A DNA stretch of 64,000 bases. Origin: Rhodothermales bacterium. Lineage in GTDB: Bacteria > Bacteroidota > Rhodothermia > Rhodothermales > VXPQ01. Positions 1-15,493 of this stretch are shown one piece after another. Every line of letters begins with the position of its first letter. The first letter of the stretch is position 1. The DNA lies in the NCBI GenBank assembly GCA_951812345.1, contig OX638295.1, positions 2,414,965 to 2,478,964 on the forward strand, read 5' to 3'. The position numbers and the translations under genes are program-made. The notes under the pieces were generated by a model, which ran no database searches, had not been told where the DNA came from, and saw only the letters and a list, made by a program, of their open reading frames with translations.

Positions 1-1320
1 GTCTTCCACGAAAAGGCGGCTCCATACGATCTCGCCGGGTTTGCCGACCCCCTTTACCGTCCCTCCCCCCAGCCGGAAGTACATGGGCGGCTGGCGCTCG
101 CTCGATGCGCCCGCATATCCCCCGGCGAAATGCTTCGGCGGCGCGGCGCCGGAAATCTCGAACACCCACACATACCGGTCGCCGTACGGATCGCCCCACC
201 GGATATCGTGCAGCGTCGTTTCGGGGTCGTAGCCGAGGGCATTCCATACGCGGTGCGTCACGAGCGCATCCACGCCTGCGCATTCGTCCACTTCGTTGAA
301 ATGCGGAAGGGCGCAGCCCGCAAAGAGTTCGCGGCTGCCGTCGCGGGCATAGACCGGGGGGCGTTCCGTATTGTTGAGCAATCCTTCGGCCAGATCGGAG
401 GCCGGAAGCAAATCCTTCAGGCCCTGCTGGTACTGGATGCCGATCGCGTCGCACCCGAAATCGTCCGCAATGCGGAGCGCAGCGATATACATCTTGAGTT
501 GCAAGCGAATCTGCTCGTCGGTCAGGTCCGTGGCGGGATCGGGCCCGGTATGGAACGTCATGCCCCGCTCGTCGAGCCATGCCCGGCACCGGTCCGCCTC
601 GTCGTCCGGGGTTTGCAGGGTTTCGTAGTACAGGGCGCTCTGGCTCAGGCGTTCCTTGAAGATGCCCGTGGCGTTGAGGATATGATCCGGAATGATCGCA
701 TTGTACATCCCCATGCACCCCTCGTCGAACACGCCCATAATGGCTTTGCGGTGCGCGAGATCGCTGGCGATGCGCTTCCCGGCAGACACGGCGGCCTCCT
801 CTTCGGAAAGACCGGGGGCCGGGCGCACATGGCTCGTATCGTGGGCAATCGCGCCGTCCGCAAGCCAGGCCCGCAACCGGGCCGTGAAAGCGGGATCGGC
901 CACATCTTCCCCCCAGAGCGTCGAATACGGGACCCCCGCCTTGGTCAGACTGCCGTTGAGGTTCAGCATGCCCACCAGGCCGGGCCATTGCCCGCTCCAG
1001 TTGGCGACTGTCAGGATGGGGCCTTTGTGCGTGGTCAGACCCGGCAGCACGTGGTGGGAGTATTGCCAGGCGGCGCAGGCCACGATCAGCGGTCGATCCG
1101 GGTCGATTTTCGCAAACGTCTCCAGCCCCATCCGCTGGCTGTCGAGAAAGCCGTGCCCCTTGTCCGCATCGAGTGCGGGGCGCCGGTCCACCGTATACCC
1201 CATCCCCTCCACCGCCTGGATCAGCGCGGTTTCGAGCGCCTGTTGCGCGGGCCAGCACACCCGGTTGGCGGCAAGCCGCAAGTCCCCGCTTGCGGTCAGA
1301 TACACTGTTTCGTTAGGCAT
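1..1320 (-). CDS. L-fucose isomerase-like sugar isomerase, N-terminal 440 codons (C-terminus lies beyond window start)
   Basis: Manual minus-strand translation from ATG 1320..1318 is open to position 1: [19 protein letters not shown]...[16 protein letters not shown]...[12 protein letters not shown]. Layout resembles FucI-family isomerases. Absent from ORF track because it is open-ended. Confidence 0.6.
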
Positions 1321-1350
1321 GGAATCCGTGAGGCAACTGGAAACGGGAAA

Positions 1351-2544
1351 CTATCCGGTCCTTCCAAGGGATGCGTCCGCGCCGCCGTGTGCATCGCTGA
1401 GCGGCATATATAATTTGCCGGAATGCGGACCGCGCATGGCCTCGCCCAGAGCCCCGGCAAGCACGGTCAATGTCAGAGCCACATGTACGTTGCTCCGGAC
1501 CAGCACGATCGCTTCTTCAATGACCGACGCCATGGCTTCGATATCGGCTCCGGGAAGACGTTCCGTGAATCCCGCAATGGCTTCTACCTGATCCACATTG
1601 ATTAGCGGGGCCGCCTCGTCCATCGCCCGGTAGAGCATAAGGTCCCGAATCCACCGGAGGAGCAGTTCCAGCACATGCCCCACCTGATCGCGCCCGAAGC
1701 GCGCGGTCCGCTCCACGATATCGGCTATTTTATCGACATTGCGACTGTACGCCGCGCGGGAAAAATCCAGCACCAGTTCCCGCAGCGCACGCAAATCCTC
1801 GTTTTGCGCCAGATCGAGCCCTGCGGTGTACGACCCGTCCGCCATCCGGGCAAGCGTTGCGGCCAACTCCGGGGCTACGCCCTCCTTCCCGATGAGCGCC
1901 TGCTCGATAGCCTCGGGAGTCAATGGATCGAACCGCAGGCGGCGGCAACGGGAGAGGATGGTGGCGAGGATGCGGTCCGCACGGCTGGTCGTAAGAATGA
2001 AAACGGTCTTCGGCGGAGGCTCTTCCAGCATCTTGAGAAACATGTTGGCGGCGTCCGTACGCAGATGCTCCGCATCGCTGACCACGGCCACCTTGTAGCG
2101 GCCCTCTACCGGCTGGAAACTCATGGCCCGGCACATTTCCTCCTGAACACGCGCCACGGTGTAAAGGGCCTGTTTGTTGGAGGAGCGGGTGGGATCGTTC
2201 AGCGAAGGCCGGCGCACGAAGTCGACCGCCGCATACGGATTCTGTCCGATGAGCCGGGTGCGTTCGGCAATATCCGCAGGATCGGCGTCCGAAGGATGCG
2301 GCATCAGAATATGCAGGTCGGGATGCACCATCCGGTCCACTTTCCCGCAAGACGGACAGGCGCCGCAGGCTTCCTCCCCGCCCTGTTCGCAAAGCAGCGC
2401 CTTGCCGTACGCTATGGCGGCGGCCCGCTTGCCCACGCCCTCCGGCCCGTAGAACAGCCAGGCATGCGCTACCCGGTCGGCGGAGATGGTGAGCCGGAGC
2501 GCGTCCGAGACGCGCTGCTGATCGATGACGGAAATCCAGGACAT
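1351..2544 (-). CDS. holB: DNA polymerase III subunit delta-prime
   Basis: N-terminus AHAWLFYGPEGVGKRAAAIAYGKALLCE plus Cys cluster CGACPSCGKV and SRCRRLRF sensor, typical of HolB. Confidence 0.85.
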   Translation of the reverse strand: MSWISVIDQQRVSDALRLTISADRVAHAWLFYGPEGVGKRAAAIAYGKALLCEQGGEEACGACPSCGKVDRMVHPDLHILMPHPSDADPADIAERTRLIGQNPYAAVDFVRRPSLNDPTRSSNKQALYTVARVQEEMCRAMSFQPVEGRYKVAVVSDAEHLRTDAANMFLKMLEEPPPKTVFILTTSRADRILATILSRCRRLRFDPLTPEAIEQALIGKEGVAPELAATLARMADGSYTAGLDLAQNEDLRALRELVLDFSRAAYSRNVDKIADIVERTARFGRDQVGHVLELLLRWIRDLMLYRAMDEAAPLINVDQVEAIAGFTERLPGADIEAMASVIEEAIVLVRSNVHVALTLTVLAGALGEAMRGPHSGKLYMPLSDAHGGADASLGRTG

Positions 2545-2752: not shown

Positions 2753-2826
2753 GGCGCGGTAGCTCAGCAGGTTAGAGCGTACGACTCATAATCGTAAGGT
2801 CGAGAGTTCGAGTCTCTCCCGCGCCA
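2753..2826 (+). tRNA. tRNA-Met (anticodon CAT); could alternatively be lysidine-type tRNA-Ile2
   Basis: Manual cloverleaf: acceptor GGCGCGG/CCGCGCC, D arm GCTC..GAGC, anticodon stem TACGA/TCGTA with loop CTCATAA, T arm GAGAG-TTCGAGT-CTCTC, discriminator A; G1-C72 pair argues against initiator. Confidence 0.9.
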
Positions 2827-2899
2827 CTGTTTGGTTTGGGGGGGTAGGATCGGGATTTTATGCCTGCAAGAGGGGACATTTGCGAGTTGATGACATCGG

Positions 2900-4243
2900 T
2901 TACCTCCAGTTGCAATTGACCTGATCGGAGAACGGTCCGTTGCCCCATACAGAATCTTTGCCGGGAAAGCCCTGTGGGGGCTCCGGGCCATCATATTTCC
3001 ACTCATCGGGCGGTGGTCCGGCGGCTCCGATCGCAAAGCACCAGCCTGTCACAGTCCGCCGCCACGCATACCATGACTGGCCGTTTTTGGCGACATGTAG
3101 CGTGATCCCAGATTCCTGGGGCAACCCTTGGCGTATAAATTTATCGCCGAGGATCTTGAGCATATCATTGCGGTAGCGGTCGTCTCTTCGATACCATCCC
3201 ATCTGACAGGTTGCCAACCACTGTAGAGCATCAATCGTTTCAGCGAACTCCCGGCGGTCCAGCTGTCGGCCTTCGTCGTCTAAGTCTTGGGAGCCAGTGT
3301 AGCGCCTTAGCCCTTCCTTCTCATTGATCTTTTTCTGTTCCGCACGTTTCAGCCTATCGAACAATTCCCCGACCACGCCTCTTGCAGCAGAGAATGTCCG
3401 GGTTTCGCTGAGTTCCCGAGCCAAGTACAAGTAACCCGTAGTCTTTCGCACAATATCTGTACGGAAGTGCAGTACAGACAGTAGCGCTAACCGGGATCGC
3501 CAGCGTGACCGTCTATCTTTCGCCTCCCAGTTGATGCGGCGAAACGCCGAATCATAGACGAGATAGGTACTGAAGACGTAAAGGAACGGCAGCAAACCGA
3601 CTGTCAGCCAGATTGGCAGCATGAACTCAAGCAGCAGCCCCCGTGTGTCGAGCTGATGCCAGTCCAAGTAAATCTGCCTTACCGAAAAAATGATCAGCGC
3701 GAGCCCAATCACAACCAACACCCACTCGAGGAATACCTTTGCAGGCTTGTATTCCGGCTTCTGGTCGCCCACTGCCACCATCAGGCTTAGTGCAAGTACT
3801 ATAATCTGCACTATAAGCTCTAATGGCAGGCTCATGACATACAGATTCACAAAGAACTCAACGAAGACGGCAACGCGGACCGTCGCCACAATCGTTTGCC
3901 GAAAGAAGTGCAGGTCGGAGTCGATTTCCGTGCAGTTGAAGAACAGAACACCGGCAGAGCCAAGTGTCCACAGGATCGTGCTGTTGGCAAGGGTGGGGTT
4001 CCACAGCGCAAGCCGTGCGCCAACCCAAAGCTCCAAGCCGACCCAGGCCAACATTGCTATGAGGGGGATCAGTATCTGGAGCTTGAGAAACGCGGTGGCG
4101 ATCCCGACAAAACCTCTGCGTCCGCCTTTCGTCGAGAGAATCCACAGAGTAGCCACACCGAGCCAGATCACAGCGGCTAATTCACGGTTGTTAAGCATCC
4201 ACATGATAGAGTGACATGGAAAGCAGGTAGCCAGCCACCGCAA
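2900..4243 (-). CDS. Polytopic membrane protein of unknown function (about 8 hydrophobic helices, then a coiled-coil-like linker and a ~130-aa soluble C-terminal domain)
   Basis: 447-aa ORF; N-terminal 260 aa dominated by hydrophobic stretches (LAAVIWLGVATLWIL, ILIPLIAMLAWVGLELWVGA, LELIVQIIVLALSLMVAV, WVLVVIGLALIIF, LPIWLTVGLLPFLYVF); visibly AT-richer than flanks; start codon uncertain (M1, M14 or M16). Confidence 0.65.
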   Translation of the reverse strand: MRWLATCFPCHSIMWMLNNRELAAVIWLGVATLWILSTKGGRRGFVGIATAFLKLQILIPLIAMLAWVGLELWVGARLALWNPTLANSTILWTLGSAGVLFFNCTEIDSDLHFFRQTIVATVRVAVFVEFFVNLYVMSLPLELIVQIIVLALSLMVAVGDQKPEYKPAKVFLEWVLVVIGLALIIFSVRQIYLDWHQLDTRGLLLEFMLPIWLTVGLLPFLYVFSTYLVYDSAFRRINWEAKDRRSRWRSRLALLSVLHFRTDIVRKTTGYLYLARELSETRTFSAARGVVGELFDRLKRAEQKKINEKEGLRRYTGSQDLDDEGRQLDRREFAETIDALQWLATCQMGWYRRDDRYRNDMLKILGDKFIRQGLPQESGITLHVAKNGQSWYAWRRTVTGWCFAIGAAGPPPDEWKYDGPEPPQGFPGKDSVWGNGPFSDQVNCNWR

Positions 4244-4260
4244 TGGCGAAACATCCAGTC

Positions 4261-4365
4261 TTACACACGTGGCCCCGGAAGATTATGCGGATTGGAGAAT
4301 AATTTCCAGGCTTCTTCTATCGTAACGGGCAGTATATCCGTGCTCTCAAGCGTATAGATTTTCAT
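4261..4365 (-). pseudogene. 34-codon remnant resembling the N-terminus of an SRPBCC-fold protein
   Basis: Manual translation MKIYTLESTDILPVTIEEAWKLFSNPHNLPGPRV*; the xxLPVxIEEAWxxFSNPxNL pattern is typical of SRPBCC N-termini; too short to be functional. Confidence 0.3.
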
Positions 4366-4418
4366 GGGGGTTCAGTATCCTGCTTCACGTTGTAACGGAG
4401 GAACCCCTATAGAAAAAT

Positions 4419-7415
4419 CTACAGACCCGGATCGTACGTCAGCGCAAAAACTTTCTCGGATAGCCATTTCCGGAAAGAATCGTTGTCCTGAAACTGCCCG
4501 AACAATTGCGTGTCGTCCTGCAGCAAGGCGGTCATAACGCGCTCCAGCGCCTTATCGTGTTCGATGCGGGCGTTTTGCTTGTCCGAATTTTCCCGGGCGT
4601 TTCTGTAGGCCATATCCTTCGCAACCTGATCAGGAATTTCTTTCGTAATCAGTTTCCCGACCCGGTCCGTATCCTTCCAGGAAATGCCCCCGAACAGGTC
4701 GTTGAATTCCTGAATGATGACCGATAAGGGGTCCATATCCGGTTCATATCGAAGGCCGCCTCCCGATGCAGGAACCGGATCGATTTCTGCATCGTCGTCC
4801 TTGAGTCGTATGGCCTGAGTCGCCTGTTTCTCCGCACGGTAACTATCCATATCTATAGATGCCAGAACACCTTTGGAGAGGTCTTCTTCGACAGGCGCCG
4901 GTAATTTGGGGACAAGGAAATGCAGGAAAATGGAGCGTTTCTCCCACTCGGCATGTGTGTAGGGCAAAATGGAGACGAGAAATTCATAGGTCCGAAGGAA
5001 TCCTTTCGCCTTGCCCTTGAAATCGACTTGCCCGTCCTCGTCCAGTTCTTCCCGGTAGGTCGCCACACAACGGTCGAGAATCGGATCAAGCCGGTCGCGT
5101 TCCGCTCCGTCGAGATAGCGTTCGACCAAGTTGTCGATATCCTCCTGTCCGTATACCTGATACCCATCCAGCGCAGCTTGCAGGTCGTGGAGTTTGTTCG
5201 GATCCGTTTCGTCGGCAAGGATGGTAGTGCGGTAATAGTCCGAGAATGCCCACTCTATCGTATCGGTATCGTTGGCGAAGTCGAGCACGAAAGCGTCGTG
5301 TTTCTTCGGATGCGCCCGGTTCAGTCTTGAAAGCGTCTGCACCGCCTTGACGCCGGACAGCACCTTGTCCACGTACATGGTGTGTAGCAGCGGTTCGTCG
5401 TAGCCGGTCTGGAACTTGTCCGCACAGACCAGGAAACGATATGGGGCTTCCTTGATCTTATCCGCAATATGGTTCGACGAAAAACCGTTCAGAGAGGCTT
5501 CGGTGACGTTCTCGCCGTCGTACTCGTGTTCGCCGGAGAATGCGACGATGGCGCGGTGCGGGCTTTTGCGTTCCTGTAGATACGCTTCGATAGCGCGATA
5601 ATACCGGATGGCCCGCTTGATGCTGCCCGTCACGACCATGGCGCGGGCCTCTCCGCCTATCCTTCTACGGTCGATTACCTGTTCGTGGAAGTGATCCACC
5701 ATGATTTCGGCCTTGAGACGAATGGCGTGGTCATGGTTCTCGACGTACCGGCGCAGTTTTTTTCGGGCGCGCCGCGTGTCGAATTTCGGGTCGTCCTCTA
5801 TCGTTTTGACAAGGCGGTAATAACTGTTGACCGGGGTGTAGTGCCCAAGCACATCCACGATAAAACCCTCCTGGATGGCTTGCTTCATCGTGTAACTGTG
5901 GAAAGGCAGGTGTTTCACCGTTCCGTCAGGTTGAGAAGACGGCTTTCCGAATACCTCGAGGGTCTTGTTCTTGGGCGTAGCGGTAAAAGCGAAGTAACTG
6001 GCGTTGGTAAGGAGTTTTTTGGCCTCCATAATCCGGTTGATCTTGTCCTCGGTCGTCTCGTCCTCATCGGCGGCGTCGTGTTCGGAAAGTGACTGCGACA
6101 TGGCCGCAGCGGTCCGCCCTCCCTGACTGGAATGCGCCTCGTCAATGATGATAGCGAAACGGCGGCTTCGGTGTTCATCGCCGATCTCGTCCAGAATGAA
6201 GGGGAATTTCTGCACCGTGGAAATAATGATTTTCTTTCCCGATTCGATGAATTCCCGGAGGTTGCCGGATCGCTCGGCATGGCCTACGATGGCGCCGACC
6301 TGGGCAAACTGCTTGATGGTATCCCGAATCTGCCGGTCCAGAATGCGTCGGTCGGTTACGACGATGATCGAATGGAAAAGCGGGGCGTCATTGTTATGGA
6401 GTTCGGCGAGCTGGTGCGCCAGCCATGCTATGGAGTTCGACTTGCCGCTTCCGGCGGAGTGCTGAATGAGATAGCGCCGCCCCGCGCCGTTTTGCGCTAC
6501 GTCCTTCAGCAATCTGCGCACTACATCGAGTTGGTGGAAGCGGGGCCATATCTGCATGGTCTTCTTGCGCCCGGTCTTCCGGTTTCCTGTTTCGACGATC
6601 TGAGCGTAGTTCTCTATGATGTTGGTGAGGCTGTCGCGAGTGAATATCTCCTTCCACAGATAGTCTGTTTTCAGCCCATTGGGGTTGGGCGGATTGCCCG
6701 CGCCGTCGTTCCACCCCCTGTTGAAGGGAAGAAACCACGAGGATTTGCCCTTGAGGTGCGTACAAAATTGAACCTGGTGGTCGTCCACCGCGAAATGCGC
6801 CATGCAGCGCCCGAACGCAAAGAGTTTTTCGCGCGGATTGCGGTCTCGTTTGTACTGTTCGACCGCATCCTCCACGGTCTGCTTGGTCAAACTATTTTTC
6901 AGCTCGAAGGTGGCGATCGGCAGCCCGTTGACAAACAGGCACAGGTCCAGCGCCAACTGCGTGTTGTCGAGGCTGTAACGAAGCTGGCGGGTTACGCTGA
7001 AACGGTTTTTGCGATAACGTTCCTGCGCAGCAGCATTTTCCGGCGATGGAGCGCCGTAGAAAAGATCAATCCGGTTCGGGCCGTGCTTTACGCCATTGCG
7101 CAGCGCATGGATCGTTCCTTGCCCGGCGATGTAACCCTCGAGGCGGGCCAGAAATTTGCGCCGGGCTGGATTGTCGCTATGGAGATTCAGCGAAGAGGCT
7201 GTTTCGGGCTGTGTTTCCTCCAGGAAGGCGGACAACTGCGCCAGATCCACGCAGAATTCGCGGTCGTAGTCGCGGGGATCGCCGCAAATCCAGCCCACGC
7301 CGTAGGTTGCCGGACGCTCTCGCACCATGCCTTCCGGCGCCGGGTCGCACGACTCCCCCGTCAGCGCCGTGCAGATCAGGCGCTCAAGGCCGTGTTCGGA
7401 GGTATCGGTGGGCAT
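4419..7415 (-). CDS. hsdR: Type I restriction enzyme R subunit
   Basis: 998 aa; helicase motifs HSAGSGKSNSIAW (Walker A) and IIIDEAHSSQGG (DEAH), QTLSRLNR motif VI; sits in operon with hsdM/hsdS. Confidence 0.9.
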   Translation of the reverse strand: MPTDTSEHGLERLICTALTGESCDPAPEGMVRERPATYGVGWICGDPRDYDREFCVDLAQLSAFLEETQPETASSLNLHSDNPARRKFLARLEGYIAGQGTIHALRNGVKHGPNRIDLFYGAPSPENAAAQERYRKNRFSVTRQLRYSLDNTQLALDLCLFVNGLPIATFELKNSLTKQTVEDAVEQYKRDRNPREKLFAFGRCMAHFAVDDHQVQFCTHLKGKSSWFLPFNRGWNDGAGNPPNPNGLKTDYLWKEIFTRDSLTNIIENYAQIVETGNRKTGRKKTMQIWPRFHQLDVVRRLLKDVAQNGAGRRYLIQHSAGSGKSNSIAWLAHQLAELHNNDAPLFHSIIVVTDRRILDRQIRDTIKQFAQVGAIVGHAERSGNLREFIESGKKIIISTVQKFPFILDEIGDEHRSRRFAIIIDEAHSSQGGRTAAAMSQSLSEHDAADEDETTEDKINRIMEAKKLLTNASYFAFTATPKNKTLEVFGKPSSQPDGTVKHLPFHSYTMKQAIQEGFIVDVLGHYTPVNSYYRLVKTIEDDPKFDTRRARKKLRRYVENHDHAIRLKAEIMVDHFHEQVIDRRRIGGEARAMVVTGSIKRAIRYYRAIEAYLQERKSPHRAIVAFSGEHEYDGENVTEASLNGFSSNHIADKIKEAPYRFLVCADKFQTGYDEPLLHTMYVDKVLSGVKAVQTLSRLNRAHPKKHDAFVLDFANDTDTIEWAFSDYYRTTILADETDPNKLHDLQAALDGYQVYGQEDIDNLVERYLDGAERDRLDPILDRCVATYREELDEDGQVDFKGKAKGFLRTYEFLVSILPYTHAEWEKRSIFLHFLVPKLPAPVEEDLSKGVLASIDMDSYRAEKQATQAIRLKDDDAEIDPVPASGGGLRYEPDMDPLSVIIQEFNDLFGGISWKDTDRVGKLITKEIPDQVAKDMAYRNARENSDKQNARIEHDKALERVMTALLQDDTQLFGQFQDNDSFRKWLSEKVFALTYDPGL

Positions 7416-7528: not shown

Positions 7529-8887
7529 TCATTGGCCTTCTTGCACTTCCTTCGGTTGTTCCGGTAGTTGCGCTACTGCCTCGCGCACATCAATCTTTCC
7601 GGTGACTACATCGGAAATCAGGCGGGTACGGTATTCTTCCATAAGTTCGATCTGGCGCCGGGTGCGGTCGATGGCGGTGTCGATGGAGGCGGTGGCTTTG
7701 TCGAGATACTCGACAATAACGTGTTGCTCGGAAAGAGAAGGGAACGCAACCGACAACCTTGAAACAACACCAGTATCAAGTATTGGAATTGTCGCTGTAG
7801 AAGCAGTTGCATGTAACCAGTCTTCTGCATTCCTAAGCTGACGTAGAATGAAAAGGGGATTTACGAGGGTAGTATTCAACTCAAAGGAAGTAATTTGCTG
7901 ATTCGTGGATCCATCCCGCATGAGTAATGCCATCCGCCCCGCAGTCGCACCTATTACCACAACCAATAATGCCGGTTTGCTTATTAGTCGAGCTTTTCCT
8001 TCTCTAAATGCATCCACTGTCAAGTGGCGTACTGGCGAATCAACTTCCTCTTGGTATCTGCAACTCGATGGCCCATACCAAGGGATAGTACCATTTTCAT
8101 AGTATCTCGGTTCGGCAGTGGGCGGAGTTATTCCGTTCTGAATACAACGGGAGAGATACTTGAGACCCATCACCTTCCAATGCTCAGGCACCTCTCCTAA
8201 CCATCCCACGCCAGAATCCTTGAGAGATACATCAGGATTGAGTCCGCGAGTGACAGCCCGTTGGATGATTGCCCGTCGGTGTTCCTCCAGCAAGCCGATC
8301 AATCTCTGCTTCGCATCGATGTAGCGCCGGATGTGATGACCGGCATGGTCGAGGAAACAGACGATGGCGTGTTGTTCGGGGAGGGGTGGGAGAGGAAGGC
8401 TTGAACGAGCAAGTTCCTCGTAGTCTATGTTCTGGCCTTGGCGAATACCAGTGACAAATAGCGATAAATTAGTTATATAGGACTTCGATTTGAAGACGTG
8501 AGATAGGTAGGCATGGTGTATTCGTTCAACCGGATACAGAATCGTATAAGCGGGGCTAATGATTCCAGAGTCGCGGGCATACTCAATACCCCCTTGGAAA
8601 GATCTCAGACTAATCACAAAATCACCACGATTTACAACTTTAAGCAAATGGAGATCCTTCATCGCCAAGACTGTGCGGCTCTCGTAATATTCTTTGCGCA
8701 CAACCCCTTTTGTTTGAGTCGCTGCTAGCAATGGCTTGTCAGGAAAGCCTTTTTTGCTTCGTTCGGCTAGAAGGGTTTTGGTTCTTCTGAGTTCCCAATG
8801 TGCTGGCACATTGCCCAGCCACTCCACCCCGGAGGATTTATATCGAGAATAAGGCTCGAATTTTTTGAATATATTGGAATCTATCAT
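7529..8887 (-). CDS. hsdS: Type I R-M specificity subunit
   Basis: 452 aa with two target-recognition halves, each followed by a conserved repeat ([16 protein letters not shown]... and [22 protein letters not shown]...[15 protein letters not shown]). Confidence 0.85.
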
Positions 8888-9333
8888 AATCTAATATATC
8901 GATATTGATTTCTGATATAGGCAATGAAATACGTACCATGTGAAGCCGCTCGCATCAAACCTTGCCACTCAAACTCAGGAACATCAAAATATTGATATAC
9001 TGCACCATTTTTAAATTCAATTTCGAGCGTTAATGAGTTAAGCTCATATCCGACCGATACAAGATTGGACGAAGTCACGGGTACTCTATTGAACGCGCCG
9101 GCGCCGCCGTTTCCGCGTACGTCCGCATGTCTGAACCGGTCGTATTGCTCGCGTTTCTGCGGATCGGACAACACCTCGTAGGCCTGGGCTACTTCCTTGA
9201 ACTTTTGTTCGGCCTCGGGATTGTCGGGATTCCGGTCGGGATGGTACTTGAGCGCCTGGGCCCGAAAGGCGCGCTTCAGCGTATCCACATCCGCGTTGCG
9301 CTCAATGCCGAGTATTTCGTAGTAATCGGTCAT
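8884..9333 (-). CDS. J-domain (DnaJ-like) protein fused to a KTSC domain
   Basis: N-terminus [35 protein letters not shown] (HPD motif); C-terminus [40 protein letters not shown] (KTSC-like); stop TGA overlaps hsdS ATG (ATGA at 8884..8887). Confidence 0.75.
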
Positions 9334-9446
9334 GGAAAGGAGACAGGATCGGACGCGAGCGGGATATATCGTGAAACAGGCAAGCGGCGCATGAAAAACG
9401 GACAGGATGTTATTATGGATAGTCTGATCAATCCGGTGTTTGGGGT

Positions 9447-9908
9447 TCAGATTGAAGGTATTGAAGATTTAGATGCGTAAAGGGGTTGATTTCTCGTTGA
9501 ATCCAACGTTAAATTGTCGATATTGTCGCGTTTTCGCGCCCCGAACGCCCCGAAATGCGGCGCTCGGTCGTACCTATCCAGCGACAGTTGCTCCTTGGAA
9601 AGATTACGTACAATGTCTTCTCCAACAATGGCTTGTAATCCTCGAACATGCGTGAGAACATCCTCAATAGTGGGCTCCTCGAACCCATCTCCCTTTAGAT
9701 TTGCAATTACAGTATGTAACTCTTCCGATTCATTCAGGAGTTCACATATTGATGTGGTAGCACCAACAATATCGAAAATCAGAGGATTGTCTTCTATCTT
9801 AACAGCCATTGGGCAGCCTGCACCCAGAAAAAGGCCTATGGGCCTCTTGGCATTTGATAAACACTGACGAAGGTACTCGATTTGTGTAACGGGATGATGT
9901 AGACTCAC
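9447..9908 (-). CDS. Hypothetical protein; N-terminal part weakly SIR2-like (GLFLGAG motif), probably a truncated remnant
   Basis: 153-aa ORF with GTG start overlapping hsdM stop (GTGA at 9905..9908); [14 protein letters not shown] resembles the SIR2_2 nucleotide-binding N-terminus; last ~45 codons look like read-through into non-coding sequence. Confidence 0.35.
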
Positions 9909-11869
9909 AATGCATGTCCTCCGATAATCTCCCTCACCAACCCCTCCGTCTCCTCCTCCAGCGCCACAATATCCGCCCGTATTTCCTCCAGTGATCGCAT
10001 GGGTTCCGGCTTGTAGAAATACCTTGTGAAACTGATTTCGTAGCCGATCTTGACCTTTGCCGGGTCATACCAGGCATCGGGGGCGTAGGGTAGCACCTCG
10101 CGGCGCAAGAATGCCTCGATTCCGCCGCTTTCCAATAACGGGATTTGCTCGGTATCGCGCAAGTCCGAATCCGGCTCATATTCCACGACGGCAGGCTTTC
10201 CGTTTACGGTCTCATTAAACAGCCCGTGAAGCGGATCCGGCCCAACGCCCTTGCGATGGATCTTCTTTATAATAGGCGGCGCTTCCTCGCTGCGTTCACC
10301 ATTTTCCTTCAGCGCTCTGATCTCCGAAGCCGTGTACTTCCGGCCCGCTTCCGCGCCTGCAATGCGCAAGGGCCGCTCGACGATCACTTTCCAGTAGCCA
10401 AATGCCTCGTTGGGAAAAATCTTCGACTCCTCTGTTTCCTCAAAGTCGAGAAAGGCCCGGCTGATGCGCTCAATGTCGGGTCCTGAAAGTTTGCAGTTCT
10501 TCTTGCCGAGATTTTTGCGCAACGGCTCGTGCCACTTCGTGGAGTCGATGAGCTGCACTTTGCCTCTTCGGTGCTCGGGCTTGCGATTGCTGAGTACCCA
10601 GATGTACGTCGCAATGCCCGTATTGTAAAACATATTGAGCGGCAGAGCTATGATCGCCTCCAGCCAGTCGTTCTCGATAATCCAGCGGCGAATGTTGCTT
10701 TCGCCTTGCCCGGCGTCCCCCGTGAACAGCGAACTCCCGTTATGCACCTCCGCAATACGGCTGCCCAACTTCGTTCCATGCTTCATTTTGCTGAGCATGT
10801 TGGCCAGAAACAACATCTGGCCGTCGCTCGAACGGGTAATGAGCGAATATTCCGAGTTACCGTCGTGCTCGATTACGAAGCGCGGATCGCGCATGCCCTT
10901 CTTGCCGCCCATCCGCTCCAGATCGTTCTTCCATGACTTACCGTACGGCGGATTCGACAGCATGAAATCGAACTCCATGTTCGGGAAAGCATCACTGGAC
11001 AGCGTAGAGCCGAATTTCATGTTGTCCGCTTCGCTGCCCTCGCCTTTCAAAATCAGATCGGCCTTGGTGATTGCATAGGTCTCGGCATTGATCTCCTGCC
11101 CGTACAGGTGAGTGGAAACGTTCTTGTCGTGCTCTTTGGCAAGTCTTTGCAGCGTGTCTTCGGCCACCGTGAGCATACCCCCAGTGCCGCAGGCGCCATC
11201 GTATACCAGATAGGGAGCATCCTGGATTTTGTCGGCGATGGGCAGGAAAATGAGGTGCGCCATGAGTTCCACGACATCGCGGGGCGTGAAGTGCTCGCCG
11301 GCTTCCTCGTTGTTTTCCTCGTTGAACCGCCGGATCAACTCCTCGAAAATCGTCCCCATCGCATGGTTATCAAGTCCCGGCAGGCGAACGCTACCGTCCG
11401 CATTCAGAACAGCCCGGGGACTCAGGTTGATAGACGGATCGAGAAACTTCCGGATCAGAAAACCGAGGGCGTCGGCCTCGACGAGTGTGGGAAGCTGGTT
11501 GTAGAACTTGAACTTGCTCAGTACTTCCTGCACGTTCGGCGAGAAACCTTCGAGATAATCCTGGAAATCATCCTTCAGTTGCTGCTGCCTGCCGCGATGA
11601 ATCAGATCCCGAAGCCGGAAGGGAGATGTATTGTAGAAAGCTTCGCCCGCCGCCTGACGCAAGGCCGCATCCTGGTTCGTAATGCGCGCGTCATCCAACT
11701 GCTGTTTCATACTGAGAACCGCCTCCTTCGTCGGTTCCAGCACTGCATCGAGCCGACGGATCACGACCATGGGCAAAATCACGTCGCGGTACTTCCCGCG
11801 AACGTAGACATCGCGCAGCACGTCGTCGGCAATCCCCCAAATAAAGTTGCTGATGTTAAGGTCGCTCAC
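9905..11869 (-). CDS. hsdM: Type I R-M N6-adenine DNA methyltransferase subunit
   Basis: 654 aa; AdoMet motif VYDGACGTGGML and catalytic FDFMLSNPPYGKSW (NPPY). Confidence 0.9.
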   Translation of the reverse strand: MSDLNISNFIWGIADDVLRDVYVRGKYRDVILPMVVIRRLDAVLEPTKEAVLSMKQQLDDARITNQDAALRQAAGEAFYNTSPFRLRDLIHRGRQQQLKDDFQDYLEGFSPNVQEVLSKFKFYNQLPTLVEADALGFLIRKFLDPSINLSPRAVLNADGSVRLPGLDNHAMGTIFEELIRRFNEENNEEAGEHFTPRDVVELMAHLIFLPIADKIQDAPYLVYDGACGTGGMLTVAEDTLQRLAKEHDKNVSTHLYGQEINAETYAITKADLILKGEGSEADNMKFGSTLSSDAFPNMEFDFMLSNPPYGKSWKNDLERMGGKKGMRDPRFVIEHDGNSEYSLITRSSDGQMLFLANMLSKMKHGTKLGSRIAEVHNGSSLFTGDAGQGESNIRRWIIENDWLEAIIALPLNMFYNTGIATYIWVLSNRKPEHRRGKVQLIDSTKWHEPLRKNLGKKNCKLSGPDIERISRAFLDFEETEESKIFPNEAFGYWKVIVERPLRIAGAEAGRKYTASEIRALKENGERSEEAPPIIKKIHRKGVGPDPLHGLFNETVNGKPAVVEYEPDSDLRDTEQIPLLESGGIEAFLRREVLPYAPDAWYDPAKVKIGYEISFTRYFYKPEPMRSLEEIRADIVALEEETEGLVREIIGGHAL

Positions 11870-11926
11870 GGTTGTTTATGCCGGAAAAGGACTTGAAACA
11901 GGATCAATGGCTATCAAGGATAATAA

Positions 11927-14506
11927 TTACGCTCTTGGCCGGATAACTAACTGGGCCCGAACCTCCTGATAAACAGGAATGTGTTCGCCAGCCTCGATCG
12001 TAACGATTAGTCCATATGAAATAGGGCTGTCGATCTTTCCTGCCGGTTCCTTACAAATTACATCAAACATCAGATACCCATCATCTGCAAACGTTTTCGC
12101 CTTTTCGCCAACCCACCTCTGGTGAAACAGCGATCCGCGCGGGATTGATGCATGGGATGGCTGTTTCTGCTCACGTCCAGTTACAATACCGTCCTTGAAT
12201 TTCCCCGTTACTTCGAGGTTGGCCATTCGATACGCCCTGTGACTGACGTTCACGGGTGAAAACCACGCCAGGGTGACGGTCACCGCACGCGGTTCTTTCA
12301 CCCGCTCAAGACTCCGCGGAAGAGGTACATGATAGGAGGCCATTTGATCTCTGGAGATATCTCCATACCCTATGAGTGTGGCCCGATTCGCGGTACACTC
12401 CATGGCCTCTGTTACTCGAGGTACCCCATAGCCTATCAGGCGAGTGACATTGTCCTTTCTGGCAATATGTTGGCGAGGGTCAGATGGACCGAAAATATCC
12501 CCCAGTTCAAAGACAGCATCGTGCCAATTGGTCCGATGTACAAGTAGCGCTCGTACGACAGAGGCGTAATATTTCGGATCGGCATTGTCGAGAATAGCCC
12601 CGTTGTCCGCCTGCATAAGCGCATCGAAGAGCCGATGAGCGGCTCGCGTGGCAAGAGCCGTGGCCACGCTCGTGCCACTCAAATTACGTTCTTGGTCGAT
12701 GCGCCCCTCTGCATCGGGCGCAGCGGCCCGTATCCCAAAATTTCGGCCCGGCAATGCTGGTTTAATTGTGAGTTGATCCCCACTTCTGATAAAACGCACA
12801 TGCTCCCGACCGCCCGGCATCAGGATATCAGGCTTGACCACCTTGCGATGCCCAAGTCCCATCGCAGAACTAACATTGGGTAACAGCGGATCATCGTACG
12901 GTCGTATGAAACTGTCCTGTGCGTCCTCTGCAGGATGCGCATCGTCATGGCACGCCCCAACGGTTATCACATTCATGGCTTCGCCGGGCGACAATAAAGT
13001 CCTGTGGGGACGCTCTTCAGCCAAACCCTCAATTACTGCATGTTCACGATCTGACGGCGATGCATCTTCAAAATCACTCCAACGGCTGAATCCGGAAATA
13101 TCAAGCGGGGCGGTTATATTGCCTGCACTCACCAAAAAAAGAATGTTGTACTTGTAGGCCAGGTGGTCCAGCAGCCTCGCCCACGGGCTCACTGGCCCCG
13201 CGAATGGTCTTCGAGTATCGCCCAGAGACAAGTTTATGAGAAACACCTCGGAAGCCACGGGCGGTTCGTTGCTTTCGCCCTCCTTGAGGCGCAATACGGC
13301 ACGATAAATGGTGTCGATAAGCAACCGGTCGGGCTGGAAACACTCTTGTTGTTCGTCAGGTGGTGCGTAGAGTACCGGTCGGAGATAAAGAGCGCGCGTA
13401 ATAGGCAATTCGCCAAGATTGCGGTCCCCATGTATAATCAACGAGGCCATCCCGGTACCATGACTACGACGCGCAACCACACTGTTTTGATCAAGAGTAT
13501 CCGGATCGTCAATCATAAGCCGACCGTCGAGTAAACGATGGCGTTGGACAGGAACGCCATCAAAAAGCGCCGCTATCGGAACAGTGTCGGGCGGTAGCGG
13601 GGGTAATTCATCAGTATCTTCACCAATCTCCAATTCTTCGCTTGCGGGAAGCGGAGATACGAAAGCCTGAGGTCGAACGAACATAATATCGTCGCATAGG
13701 GCAAGAGCCACTTCTTCCCGGCGAATGAGCCGTTTCATTTCACGAATCGGTATTTCAACGAGGGCGGCGTCATAGGCTATCTCAGGAATGGATGCAGTGG
13801 TGATTACAGAGCCACCCGCCTCGTTTATCACTGTATTCAAACGATTGAGCGCCCTGTGATCCCGATCACGCCAAAGTTCAATTTCCGCTCGAATCAGTTC
13901 ATTTGGACTACTCGCCACGATATCCTGAAAGAACCGAATGTCTTGCTTAGAAAGACGATCTTCGGGGCCCCATGCCCGGATATCCTTAAGTTGATTAAAC
14001 AAATTGAGCCAGGATTTATAACCATAACCAAGGTCCTGACCGGCCTGATAGCGCTTCCATAGAGACAATATCTCTTTTAGTGCTCGCACATCGGGCATTA
14101 CCAGGTACAGACGCCCTCCAATTTGTTTGTCCAGGCGCCGCTGCCCTTCCCGGCCTTCGCGGGTATCAGAAATCCAAAAGTCATCGTCCGGATCAAACTC
14201 AATCTCATCTTCCCCAAGATATTCGAGACCGGATATCCGTTGCGTCGCAGCGGCAAAATTATCCAGCGATCCCGCAATTTCAAAAACGAGAGCGCGTTCG
14301 GGCGCCAGCCCCATCGGATCGTTACGAAGCGTTAGCGGATCCTGATCGGAATCCAGCACATTCGCCAATCGCTGAAAAACAGGCCCGAAACGCTCGCCCT
14401 GGCGCTCATGGGACGGATGCTCTGGTGGAGGCACGTATACGGGCGACCCCGTGAGACGGGGCCCCACCCGTGGAACCGGAAGGGGAAGAAGGGGAAACTC
14501 AGCCAT
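11927..14506 (-). CDS. S8 (subtilisin-like) serine peptidase, IetS-like
   Basis: 859 aa; catalytic elements AALFDGVP (Asp), SHGTGMASLIIHGD (His), VSAGN (oxyanion Asn), LSGTSVATALATRAAH (Ser); directly downstream of an AAA+ ATPase gene. Confidence 0.75.
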   Translation of the reverse strand: MAEFPLLPLPVPRVGPRLTGSPVYVPPPEHPSHERQGERFGPVFQRLANVLDSDQDPLTLRNDPMGLAPERALVFEIAGSLDNFAAATQRISGLEYLGEDEIEFDPDDDFWISDTREGREGQRRLDKQIGGRLYLVMPDVRALKEILSLWKRYQAGQDLGYGYKSWLNLFNQLKDIRAWGPEDRLSKQDIRFFQDIVASSPNELIRAEIELWRDRDHRALNRLNTVINEAGGSVITTASIPEIAYDAALVEIPIREMKRLIRREEVALALCDDIMFVRPQAFVSPLPASEELEIGEDTDELPPLPPDTVPIAALFDGVPVQRHRLLDGRLMIDDPDTLDQNSVVARRSHGTGMASLIIHGDRNLGELPITRALYLRPVLYAPPDEQQECFQPDRLLIDTIYRAVLRLKEGESNEPPVASEVFLINLSLGDTRRPFAGPVSPWARLLDHLAYKYNILFLVSAGNITAPLDISGFSRWSDFEDASPSDREHAVIEGLAEERPHRTLLSPGEAMNVITVGACHDDAHPAEDAQDSFIRPYDDPLLPNVSSAMGLGHRKVVKPDILMPGGREHVRFIRSGDQLTIKPALPGRNFGIRAAAPDAEGRIDQERNLSGTSVATALATRAAHRLFDALMQADNGAILDNADPKYYASVVRALLVHRTNWHDAVFELGDIFGPSDPRQHIARKDNVTRLIGYGVPRVTEAMECTANRATLIGYGDISRDQMASYHVPLPRSLERVKEPRAVTVTLAWFSPVNVSHRAYRMANLEVTGKFKDGIVTGREQKQPSHASIPRGSLFHQRWVGEKAKTFADDGYLMFDVICKEPAGKIDSPISYGLIVTIEAGEHIPVYQEVRAQLVIRPRA

Positions 14507-14518
14507 CAGTCGGGTTAC

Positions 14519-15493
14519 TTATTCTTCTGAGGCTTTACCTCGTTCCTTCCAGAGTTTTAGTGCATCTCCTACTTCTTTCTTCAGGCTGTTGCGCCCCATC
14601 CCGAGCACGATGCGGCGTCGAACATCCAGGCAAAACTCCTCGGCTTCAGCGTAACTCACATCACCCAAATGAGAAGCCAGCGTAGCCGCTGAATATCCCA
14701 GCGGCCGATCAAACTTTTTCACAAACGTGTCGAAGTACCTTGTCAATTCGCGCTCACTGGGAGCCTTGAGTTCAAGGCGCACCTGGAACCGGCGCCATAC
14801 GGCGCGATCCAGTAATTCGGCATGATTCGTTGCCGCTACCGTAACCGTGTAGCTCGGCAAGGCATCCACCTGCATGAGGAGTGACGTAACCACGCGCTTG
14901 ATTTCGCCAGTCTCATGGGTGTCCCCACGCTCTTTTGCAATAGCGTCGAACTCATCGAAAAAGAGGACGCACGGCGTGGTGCGCGCATAATCGAACACAT
15001 GTTTCAGACGCGATGCCGTTTCCCCAAGGTAGCTTCCAATCACCGCCTCGTAACGGACAATGATGAAGGGAACAGCAAGCGATTCGGCAATAGCCTCGGC
15101 AAGCGAGGTCTTCCCGTTTCCCGGGGGACCAATCAGGAGCACTCGATGGCGCGGTTCCAGTGAATGGGCGCGCAATACGGAAGCGCGATGCTGCTCTTCA
15201 ATAAGTTCGCGGCAGGCCCTGCGCGTAATGTCCGGCAGGACGATATCCTCTAATCTCCTGCGAGGAATAAACTCGATTGCGTAATCTCTCCAACGCTGTC
15301 GCGAACCGCCCGCAAATTCCATCTTCCGAAGGTGGTTCCCGTTAGCCATCGCCCGCGTCAGCCGATCAGCGAGGATGTGATGGTTCTTTACACGCTCGTC
15401 GGCGATGATAGCCTCGGCAGTGGAACGCACCTTCTTGAGATCACCTTCCGTGCTGGCCTGCAAAAGCGAAACCAGTAGGTCGCCGCGTGCCAT
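14519..15493 (-). CDS. Classical AAA+ ATPase, IetA-like
   Basis: 324 aa; Walker A LLIGPPGNGKTS, Walker B VLFFDEFDAI, sensor ATNHAELLD, arginine RRF; 12-nt gap to the S8 peptidase gene. Confidence 0.8.
   Translation of the reverse strand: MARGDLLVSLLQASTEGDLKKVRSTAEAIIADERVKNHHILADRLTRAMANGNHLRKMEFAGGSRQRWRDYAIEFIPRRRLEDIVLPDITRRACRELIEEQHRASVLRAHSLEPRHRVLLIGPPGNGKTSLAEAIAESLAVPFIIVRYEAVIGSYLGETASRLKHVFDYARTTPCVLFFDEFDAIAKERGDTHETGEIKRVVTSLLMQVDALPSYTVTVAATNHAELLDRAVWRRFQVRLELKAPSERELTRYFDTFVKKFDRPLGYSAATLASHLGDVSYAEAEEFCLDVRRRIVLGMGRNSLKKEVGDALKLWKERGKASEE

Follow-up and report, generated by a model that had tools for sequence, protein, structure and literature searches.

We analysed a 64,000-nucleotide stretch of the genome of a Rhodothermales bacterium (contig OX638295.1, forward strand, positions 2,414,965 to 2,478,964; hereafter the window), in which an open reading frame (ORF) of 149 amino acids (aa) lies inside a type I restriction-modification (R-M) operon and encodes a J domain followed by a KTSC domain (8884..9333, minus strand; Pfam DnaJ and KTSC). 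This ORF is a chimera of two truncated genes, and its structural history is secure: a SIR2-HerA-KTSC defence cassette nested in the operon was gutted by a deletion-insertion from the host grpE-dnaJ region, and the inserted dnaJ fragment was fused in frame to KTSC. Both breakpoints and both parental sequences were identified, HerA and the catalytic part of SIR2 have been lost, and the resulting architecture occurs in a single lineage. The fusion protein itself is probably a by-product without a selected role, a chimeric relic of a decayed defence cassette.

Profile searches with the 149-aa protein revealed a full-length Pfam DnaJ match at residues 3-65 (PF00226, E 7.9e-29, profile positions 1-63 of 63), with the HPD tripeptide at residues 31-33, and a full-length Pfam KTSC match at residues 87-144 (PF13619, E 1.8e-23, profile positions 1-58 of 58). 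The KTSC half contains the motif VYQYF and all 11 of the 11 invariant residues of its subfamily. The protein thus combines the profile match and HPD of a J-domain protein with the profile match and central YxY of a KTSC protein. The NCBIfam model DnaJ_bact (TIGR02349) was matched over positions 1-79 of 354 only, with 117.8 bits against a cutoff of 377.2. Judged by its sequence, the chimera is a J-domain protein but no DnaJ chaperone. Analysis of base composition revealed a guanine plus cytosine content of 57-62% across 9050..9349, the J half, and of 31-43% across 8850..9099, the KTSC half; the step from ~60% to ~35% falls at 9090/9091, which is the exact junction found by blastn against the related locus L002. 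At its 3' end the TGA of the chimera overlaps the ATG of hsdS (ATGA at 8884..8887). An earlier note on this DNA had proposed a J domain with HPD, a KTSC assignment, the ATGA overlap and a compositional junction within 9075..9110, and in all of these it proved correct.

The ancestral arrangement is preserved in L002, which is syntenic with the window at ~89% nucleotide identity through hsdM, hsdS, hsdR and the flanks. L002 has the gene order hsdM-SIR2 (385 aa)-HerA/DUF87 (620 aa)-KTSC (69 aa; L002 5008..5217)-hsdS-hsdR (998 aa), followed by an uncharacterised 436-aa gene and the gene for DNA polymerase III delta', with 4-bp overlaps at hsdM/SIR2, HerA/KTSC and KTSC/hsdS. The earlier note's general premise, that type I loci host embedded accessory genes, is correct. 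When the two loci were compared by blastn, window 11874..9588 aligned to L002 9..2295 at 89%, and window 9090..8792 aligned to L002 5011..5309 at 81%, beginning at KTSC codon 2, and the match continued into hsdS and hsdR. Between the two breaks in the alignment, at window 9588/9587 and 9091/9090, 497 bp of the window (9091..9587) occupy the place of 2,715 bp in L002. Relative to L002, the window has lost SIR2 codons 108-385, the whole of HerA and the KTSC ATG. The KTSC/hsdS overlap is already present in L002; the ATGA coupling was therefore inherited from the ancestral KTSC gene and is no property of the chimera.

Upstream of the insert, the window retains a 5' stump of the SIR2 gene, codons 1-107 (9588..9908, minus strand; PADLOC PDLC04093, E 2.3e-22, profile positions 1-111 of 395). 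The frame of the stump reads on into the inserted DNA and stops at 9447, giving an ORF (9447..9908, minus strand) of 109 SIR2 residues plus 44 from the insert, whose GTG start overlaps the hsdM stop. Residues 1-109 match the SIR2 protein of L002 at 87% (tblastn). In an exhaustive HMMER search the SIR2 homology of the stump always stopped at residue ~109, full-length relatives being 380-420 aa; these relatives came from the exhaustive search, and a word-indexed protein search with the stump yielded two close fragments only. The earlier note had placed a single 149-aa gene between hsdM and hsdS: the gene is real, but it does not stand alone, the stump ORF having been overlooked.

No HerA and no further SIR2 sequence was detected in the 64-kb window by tblastn with the L002 proteins. 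Relocation of SIR2-HerA to another part of the window was rejected on the same search, in which the only matches were the stump and the KTSC half. Of the components of a SIR2-HerA system, the window thus retains the KTSC module and lacks both an intact SIR2 (1-109 of ~385-395 residues) and an adjacent HerA (DUF87), a gene that is present in L002, L003, L004 and L087. The window locus has thus arisen by decay from a SIR2-HerA system of the Paenibacillus type and is not an active one. Elsewhere, locus L171 carries 138 aa of HerA homology within a 172-aa ORF ahead of KTSC (1399..1917), a further sign of decay.

The source of the insert was identified by a scan of one genome per species; the dnaJ parents considered here are proxies from two other Rhodothermales genomes and not the host's own dnaJ. 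Residues 1-80 of the chimera are 86% and 85% identical to the genuine dnaJ products of these two chromosomes; the next best genome reached 65%. At the nucleotide level, window 9095..9413 aligned to L005 10239..9919 (dnaJ codons 1-80 plus ~80 bp before the ATG) at 87.5%. The matching gene in L005 encodes a full-length 386-aa DnaJ with a zinc-finger domain and lies 259 bp downstream of grpE. The insert-derived part of the window accordingly comprises dnaJ codons 1-81, that is, the J domain and the start of the G/F region (9091..9333, minus strand; the N-terminal half of the chimera), an 80-bp dnaJ upstream (leader) region carried in with the insert and defined by the alignment to L005 (9334..9413, minus strand), and 174 bp of distal DNA (9414..9587, minus strand). 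The distal DNA gave no match in the window, L002, L005, L006, the 180 fetched loci or Rfam. Since the insert reaches 254 bp upstream of the chimera ATG, close to the 259-bp grpE-dnaJ spacer of L005, this segment probably represents the corresponding spacer of the host itself, which would be less conserved. One hairpin, located where the insert begins at its 5' end, was only weakly better than shuffled sequences (z = -2.0). A scan of 8800..10000 for sigma-70-type promoters and terminators gave background-level hits, none of them on the coding (minus) strand; the promoters of this phylum may, however, be of other types.

The C-terminal half of the chimera consists of codons 2-69 and the stop codon of the ancestral stand-alone KTSC gene (8884..9090, minus strand). 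The original form of the right junction was visible in relatives of the window chimera, which hold DnaJ G/F-region sequence ...TGFHDVNDIFSAF up to the junction (dnaJ codons 1-92). One of them, P0002 (161 aa), has 12 residues more than the window protein, TGFHDVNDIFSA, and these belong to the DnaJ G/F region. The parental sequences at the junction are ...GCGTTCA|GCG in dnaJ and ...GAATGA|ATAGAG in KTSC, and the chimera reads GCGTTCAATAGAG; dnaJ codon 92 is joined to KTSC codon 2 across a 1-nt microhomology. The 149-aa form of the window is derived from the 161-aa form by a 36-bp in-frame deletion between GCGCG direct repeats. The intact 161-aa version was found in three other independent metagenome assemblies (L001, L085 and L086). 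Left and right junctions are identical in the four assemblies, which come from different samples (window, ERZ25067264, ERZ23495150 and ERZ6103875), and the divergence among them is lineage-specific.

We also examined the KTSC half by itself. A search revealed 150 proteins, nearly all of them free-standing KTSC proteins of 69 aa, which were up to 84% identical to the 68-aa query and aligned with it end-to-end; a J domain was present in none of the 150. This end-to-end match indicates that the C-terminal half of the chimera is an entire small gene minus its methionine. The neighbourhood of KTSC was surveyed in 80 metagenome loci. HerA/DUF87 accounted for 39 of the 47 sizeable ORFs upstream of KTSC, and SIR2_2 for 24 of 29 genes one step further upstream; by tblastn, HerA lay directly before KTSC in 37 of the 45 loci having at least 1.9 kb of upstream sequence. 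Genes of hsd type were present in 3 of the 80 loci, with the nested hsdM...hsdS arrangement in two of them (L101 and L133). On these counts, a role for KTSC as a type I R-M-specific gene was rejected. SIR2-HerA-KTSC was found within hsd genes in L003 and without hsd genes in L004 and L087-L094. The data support the view that whole SIR2-HerA-KTSC cassettes can nest between hsdM and hsdS by 4-bp overlaps.

Reportedly, Garb and colleagues described the SIR2-HerA anti-phage system of Paenibacillus sp. 453MF in 2022. That system is the experimentally validated prototype, with structures including 8wiv (PMC11472057). The structure paper assigns residues 576-696 of its HerA to a hexamer-stabilising 'C-terminal arm domain' and makes no mention of KTSC (PMC11472057). 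The KTSC subfamily profile matched residues 628-696 of this 696-aa protein (PDB 8wiv chain A, E 3e-29), and the KTSC half of the window protein was 55% identical to residues 630-696. HerA of L002 matched the same chain over residues 7-603 (E 7e-209). The C-terminus of the solved protein is thus a KTSC domain, and the 69-aa KTSC gene represents the split-off C-terminal module of HerA. Most of the related loci encode this module as a gene of its own, of 69 aa, but HerA and KTSC form a single reading frame in three complete loci (L130, L140 and L142), and in L134 the same frame is open to the contig start. These data support KTSC as a hitherto unrecognised module of Paenibacillus-type SIR2-HerA systems that is detachable: it is part of HerA in the solved structure and a separate gene here. 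Neither J-KTSC proteins nor KTSC in SIR2-HerA were described in the literature that we searched, apart from one sentence in which Iyer et al. (2022) report HerA-KTSC-endoDNase neighbourhoods as an unpublished observation (PMC9503650); PMC11514479 and PMC13434337 contained nothing of relevance.

The same KTSC subfamily was found directly after an OLD-family ATPase-TOPRIM nuclease gene (GajA/Old-like in PADLOC) in L095-L100 (for L095, KTSC at 6001..6216). Further KTSC-OLD linkages were present in L123, L128, L166 and L178, and KTSC precedes the OLD-family gene in some loci. Defence ATPases that target nucleic acids may generally have KTSC as an accessory module. Homologues with 40-54% identity were also observed as small hypothetical proteins in 116 phage genomes, many of them jumbo phages (for example KT001914.1 64420..64623, from Caulobacter phage Seuss, and ON453904.1 13903..14091), and one phage KTSC gene adjoins a Lar-like restriction alleviation gene. 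The phage proteins might be decoys of the HerA KTSC module.

The combination of DnaJ with KTSC was confined to a single lineage. Among 5.8 billion proteins it formed two clusters only, the other hits being N-termini of ordinary DnaJ. One cluster holds the window protein (representative P0001, identical), and the other is P0002 (161 aa, 86% identical). Linkage to hsd genes that recurs across lineages, as expected of a dedicated type I accessory gene, was not observed for J+KTSC. These results bear on the central proposal of the earlier note, a J-domain partner that couples type I R-M to DnaK, which is not upheld. The J half is a truncated copy of housekeeping dnaJ (85-86% aa and 87.5% nucleotide identity). 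The neighbours of KTSC are SIR2 and HerA rather than hsd genes, and the J+KTSC architecture occurs in one lineage only. Its other suggestion, a separate defence module, holds in part: the KTSC half does belong to a SIR2-HerA defence module, but the fusion as a new defence adaptor has no comparative support.

Substitutions were counted between the window and the L001/L085 lineage. These share a 1.5-kb block (window ~8460..9925) that runs from the SIR2 stump through target-recognition domain (TRD) 1 of hsdS and is 95-98.7% identical. Outside the block, hsdM and hsdR are ~85-92% identical, and TRD2 of hsdS (about 7750..8160) is unrelated (~50%). The higher identity of the block points to a recent recombinational exchange of a TRD1-containing cassette that carried the chimera along. 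Within the block, the SIR2 stump showed 2 synonymous (Sd) and 10 non-synonymous (Nd) differences (omega 1.56, dN 0.042), consistent with a dead gene. In hsdS codons 1-142 the counts were Sd 5 and Nd 3 (omega 0.17, dN 0.009). The chimera had Sd 6 and Nd 11 (omega 0.51, dN 0.033), with an omega of 0.65 for the J half and 0.37 for the KTSC half; its dN was ~3.6-fold that of hsdS and close to that of the stump. With 17 substitutions only, the omega of the chimera was not significantly different from 1 (P = 0.15) and marginally different from 0.2 (P = 0.045). In nucleotide identity, the J half (95.9%) and the KTSC half (96.6%) were close to the stump (96.3%) and to non-coding insert DNA (97.7% and 96.2%). 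At one position where 118 DnaJ N-termini and the two Rhodothermales dnaJ genes all have Gly, Arg is found in both chimera lineages (FGH to FRH). In addition, a Lys conserved at 96% has been replaced in one lineage, and a Gly conserved at 78% in the other.

Our explanation begins with an ancestral operon hsdM-SIR2-HerA-KTSC-hsdS-hsdR, in which a Paenibacillus-type SIR2-HerA abortive-infection cassette was nested among the type I R-M genes and the C-terminal KTSC module of HerA had a 69-aa gene to itself. A single illegitimate recombination then swapped 2,715 bp for a copy of ~0.5 kb from the grpE-dnaJ region of the host lineage, joining dnaJ codon 92 in frame to KTSC codon 2, and the window lineage later lost 36 bp in frame. 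Translation of the ORF probably persists, beginning at the dnaJ start and stopping, as in the old KTSC gene, at the ATGA. Both parents of the chimera are identifiable and truncated, and its breakpoints are defined, as expected of a relic. Because the partner HerA is gone, the architecture is confined to a single lineage and the substitution rate is close to that of the neighbouring dead DNA, we favour the view that the protein is a by-product. We infer that restriction-modification involves no selected role for the protein, which has lost its natural partner, and that the chimera drifts nearly neutrally in a locus where SIR2-HerA defence is dead and the type I system is intact.

Several observations weigh against this conclusion. 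The frame is open in all four assemblies, and the later 36-bp deletion also preserved it, although this has a 1-in-3 chance and the lineages have diverged by only ~4%. Neither the HPD motif nor the core helices of the J domain nor any invariant KTSC residue has been lost, and the omega of the chimera is 0.5 and not 1, on 17 substitutions. N-terminal J plus G/F fragments of DnaJ stimulate DnaK in Escherichia coli; by analogy, the fusion protein could be biochemically active. Finally, the block that contains the chimera is more alike between lineages than its flanks are, which could reflect selection for the allele.

Alternatively, the ORF might be kept open as a translational leader: hsdS initiation would depend on ribosomes that terminate at the ATGA, as with the ancestral KTSC gene, and selection would act on the open frame and not on the protein. 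After loss of the cassette, only an in-frame fusion would have restored a translated ORF, complete with the dnaJ upstream region, ribosome-binding site and start. Consistent with this, the overlaps at hsdM/SIR2, HerA/KTSC and KTSC/hsdS are ancestral, the upstream region and start codon of dnaJ came in with the insert, hsdS remains intact and under constraint (omega 0.17), and the frame has been kept in four assemblies, even through the in-frame 36-bp deletion, while amino-acid constraint looks weak. However, nothing indicates that hsdS requires coupling in this organism, and an open frame is expected by chance at ~4% divergence. The scan of 8800..10000 revealed no sigma-70-like promoter on the minus strand (with the same reservation about promoter types in this phylum), and read-through transcription from hsdM could suffice. 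We regard selection on the open frame as a reasonable variant, but a rather unlikely one.

A function for the fusion protein itself is harder to sustain. Here the J domain would recruit DnaK to a KTSC target, such as DNA, HsdS/HsdM or a phage factor; it would thereby modulate restriction alleviation or the assembly of the type I R-M system, or serve as a novel adaptor in defence or anti-defence. The retention of HPD and of all invariant KTSC residues, the intact ORF in four assemblies and the identity of KTSC as a bona fide defence-complex module would all fit, and the 95-98.7% identity of the 1.5-kb block between lineages indicates that the allele spread recently by recombination. That block, however, holds TRD1 of hsdS, whose exchange is an ordinary explanation for it. 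The architecture is confined to one lineage and lacks comparative support, and the junction has the look of an accident, with 1-nt microhomology and a position midway through the DnaJ G/F region on one side and at KTSC codon 2 on the other. Moreover, HerA, the partner of KTSC, has been deleted, dN is about 3.6-fold that of hsdS and near that of the dead SIR2 stump, and DnaJ-invariant positions are mutated. We consider such a role improbable, and give equally little credence to the version in which an accidental fusion was co-opted as a chaperone-linked regulator or sensor of the type I operon and its allele spread between lineages because it was advantageous. An assembly or binning artefact that joined a dnaJ read to the R-M locus might be suspected from the metagenome-derived source and the abrupt compositional shift at the junction, but it is effectively refuted by the identical junctions and lineage-specific divergence of four independent assemblies.

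The type I system that surrounds the relic is complete, with hsdM, hsdS and hsdR recognised by Pfam and PADLOC. The methyltransferase gene hsdM (9905..11869, minus strand) encodes an intact protein of 654 aa (HsdM_N and N6_Mtase; MTase_I, E 5e-242) and is 89% identical in nucleotide sequence to L002 (positions 9..2295). The specificity subunit gene hsdS (7529..8887, minus strand) encodes an intact protein of 452 aa (Methylase_S; Specificity_I, E 3e-108). The restriction subunit gene hsdR (4419..7415, minus strand) encodes an intact protein of 998 aa (HSDR_N, SWI2_SNF2, ResIII and T1R_D3-like), the same length as its orthologue in L002. In L001 the hsdM and hsdR calls are split (4137..6100 and 9121..12119; 3x coverage), and these may be sequencing errors or pseudogenes. 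Directly upstream of hsdM in the window lies a complete anti-phage pair, IetA (324 aa, PADLOC E 1.7e-145) and IetS (859 aa, E 2.3e-286), at 11927..15493 on the minus strand; its position beside hsdM marks the region as a defence island. A 447-aa predicted membrane protein is encoded downstream of hsdR (2900..4243, minus strand), with a 436-aa counterpart at the same position in L002; it had no match in Pfam, PADLOC or NCBIfam and may be another island gene. A tRNA-Met gene (2753..2827, plus strand) marks the far edge of the island.

Comparison with known systems places these findings in context. As in Paenibacillus sp. 453MF, the intact cassettes of L002, L003 and L004 have a SIR2_2 NADase gene followed by a HerA/DUF87 ATPase gene. 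In contrast to that system, KTSC is here a separate 69-aa gene, and hsdM and hsdS flank the nested cassette, while the window copy is destroyed, with a SIR2 stump, no HerA, and KTSC fused to a dnaJ fragment. An accessory gene embedded in a type I operon is familiar from EcoprrI, where prrC lies between hsdS and hsdR. The resemblance is that a second defence function resides inside the hsd operon and is co-transcribed with it; the embedded module here, however, is SIR2-HerA-KTSC and not an anticodon nuclease, only its scar is left in the window, and nothing indicates that the R-M proteins regulate it as they do PrrC. Compared with bacterial DnaJ (type I Hsp40), residues 1-81 of the chimera are a near-copy of the host-lineage N-terminus with HPD, but most of the G/F region, the zinc-finger domain and the C-terminal substrate-binding domains are absent and the Gly of FGH is mutated. 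The HerA-KTSC-endoDNase neighbourhoods (PMC9503650) similarly link a small KTSC gene to a HerA-like ATPase in predicted defence systems. In those, an endoDNase replaces the sirtuin, whereas here sirtuin and KTSC occur together, and KTSC is also found after OLD nucleases.

Taken together, these results mean that J-KTSC is not upheld as a candidate chaperone partner of restriction enzymes and should not be pursued as a new R-M component. The chimera is instead a cleanly resolved case of natural gene birth by illegitimate recombination, in which the parents, the breakpoints and a later in-frame deletion are all visible. The locus also illustrates how a SIR2-HerA abortive-infection cassette can be nested in a type I R-M operon through overlaps of stop with start codons, and how such a cassette decays while the R-M genes persist. 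The intact relatives depart from the systems described so far in two respects: KTSC is split off as its own gene, and the cassette lies between hsdM and hsdS. More broadly, KTSC, as a gene or as a domain, emerges as a recurrent module of HerA-based and some OLD-based defence; it is unnamed in the solved Paenibacillus HerA, and its recognition there provides a handle on the role of the "arm" domain.

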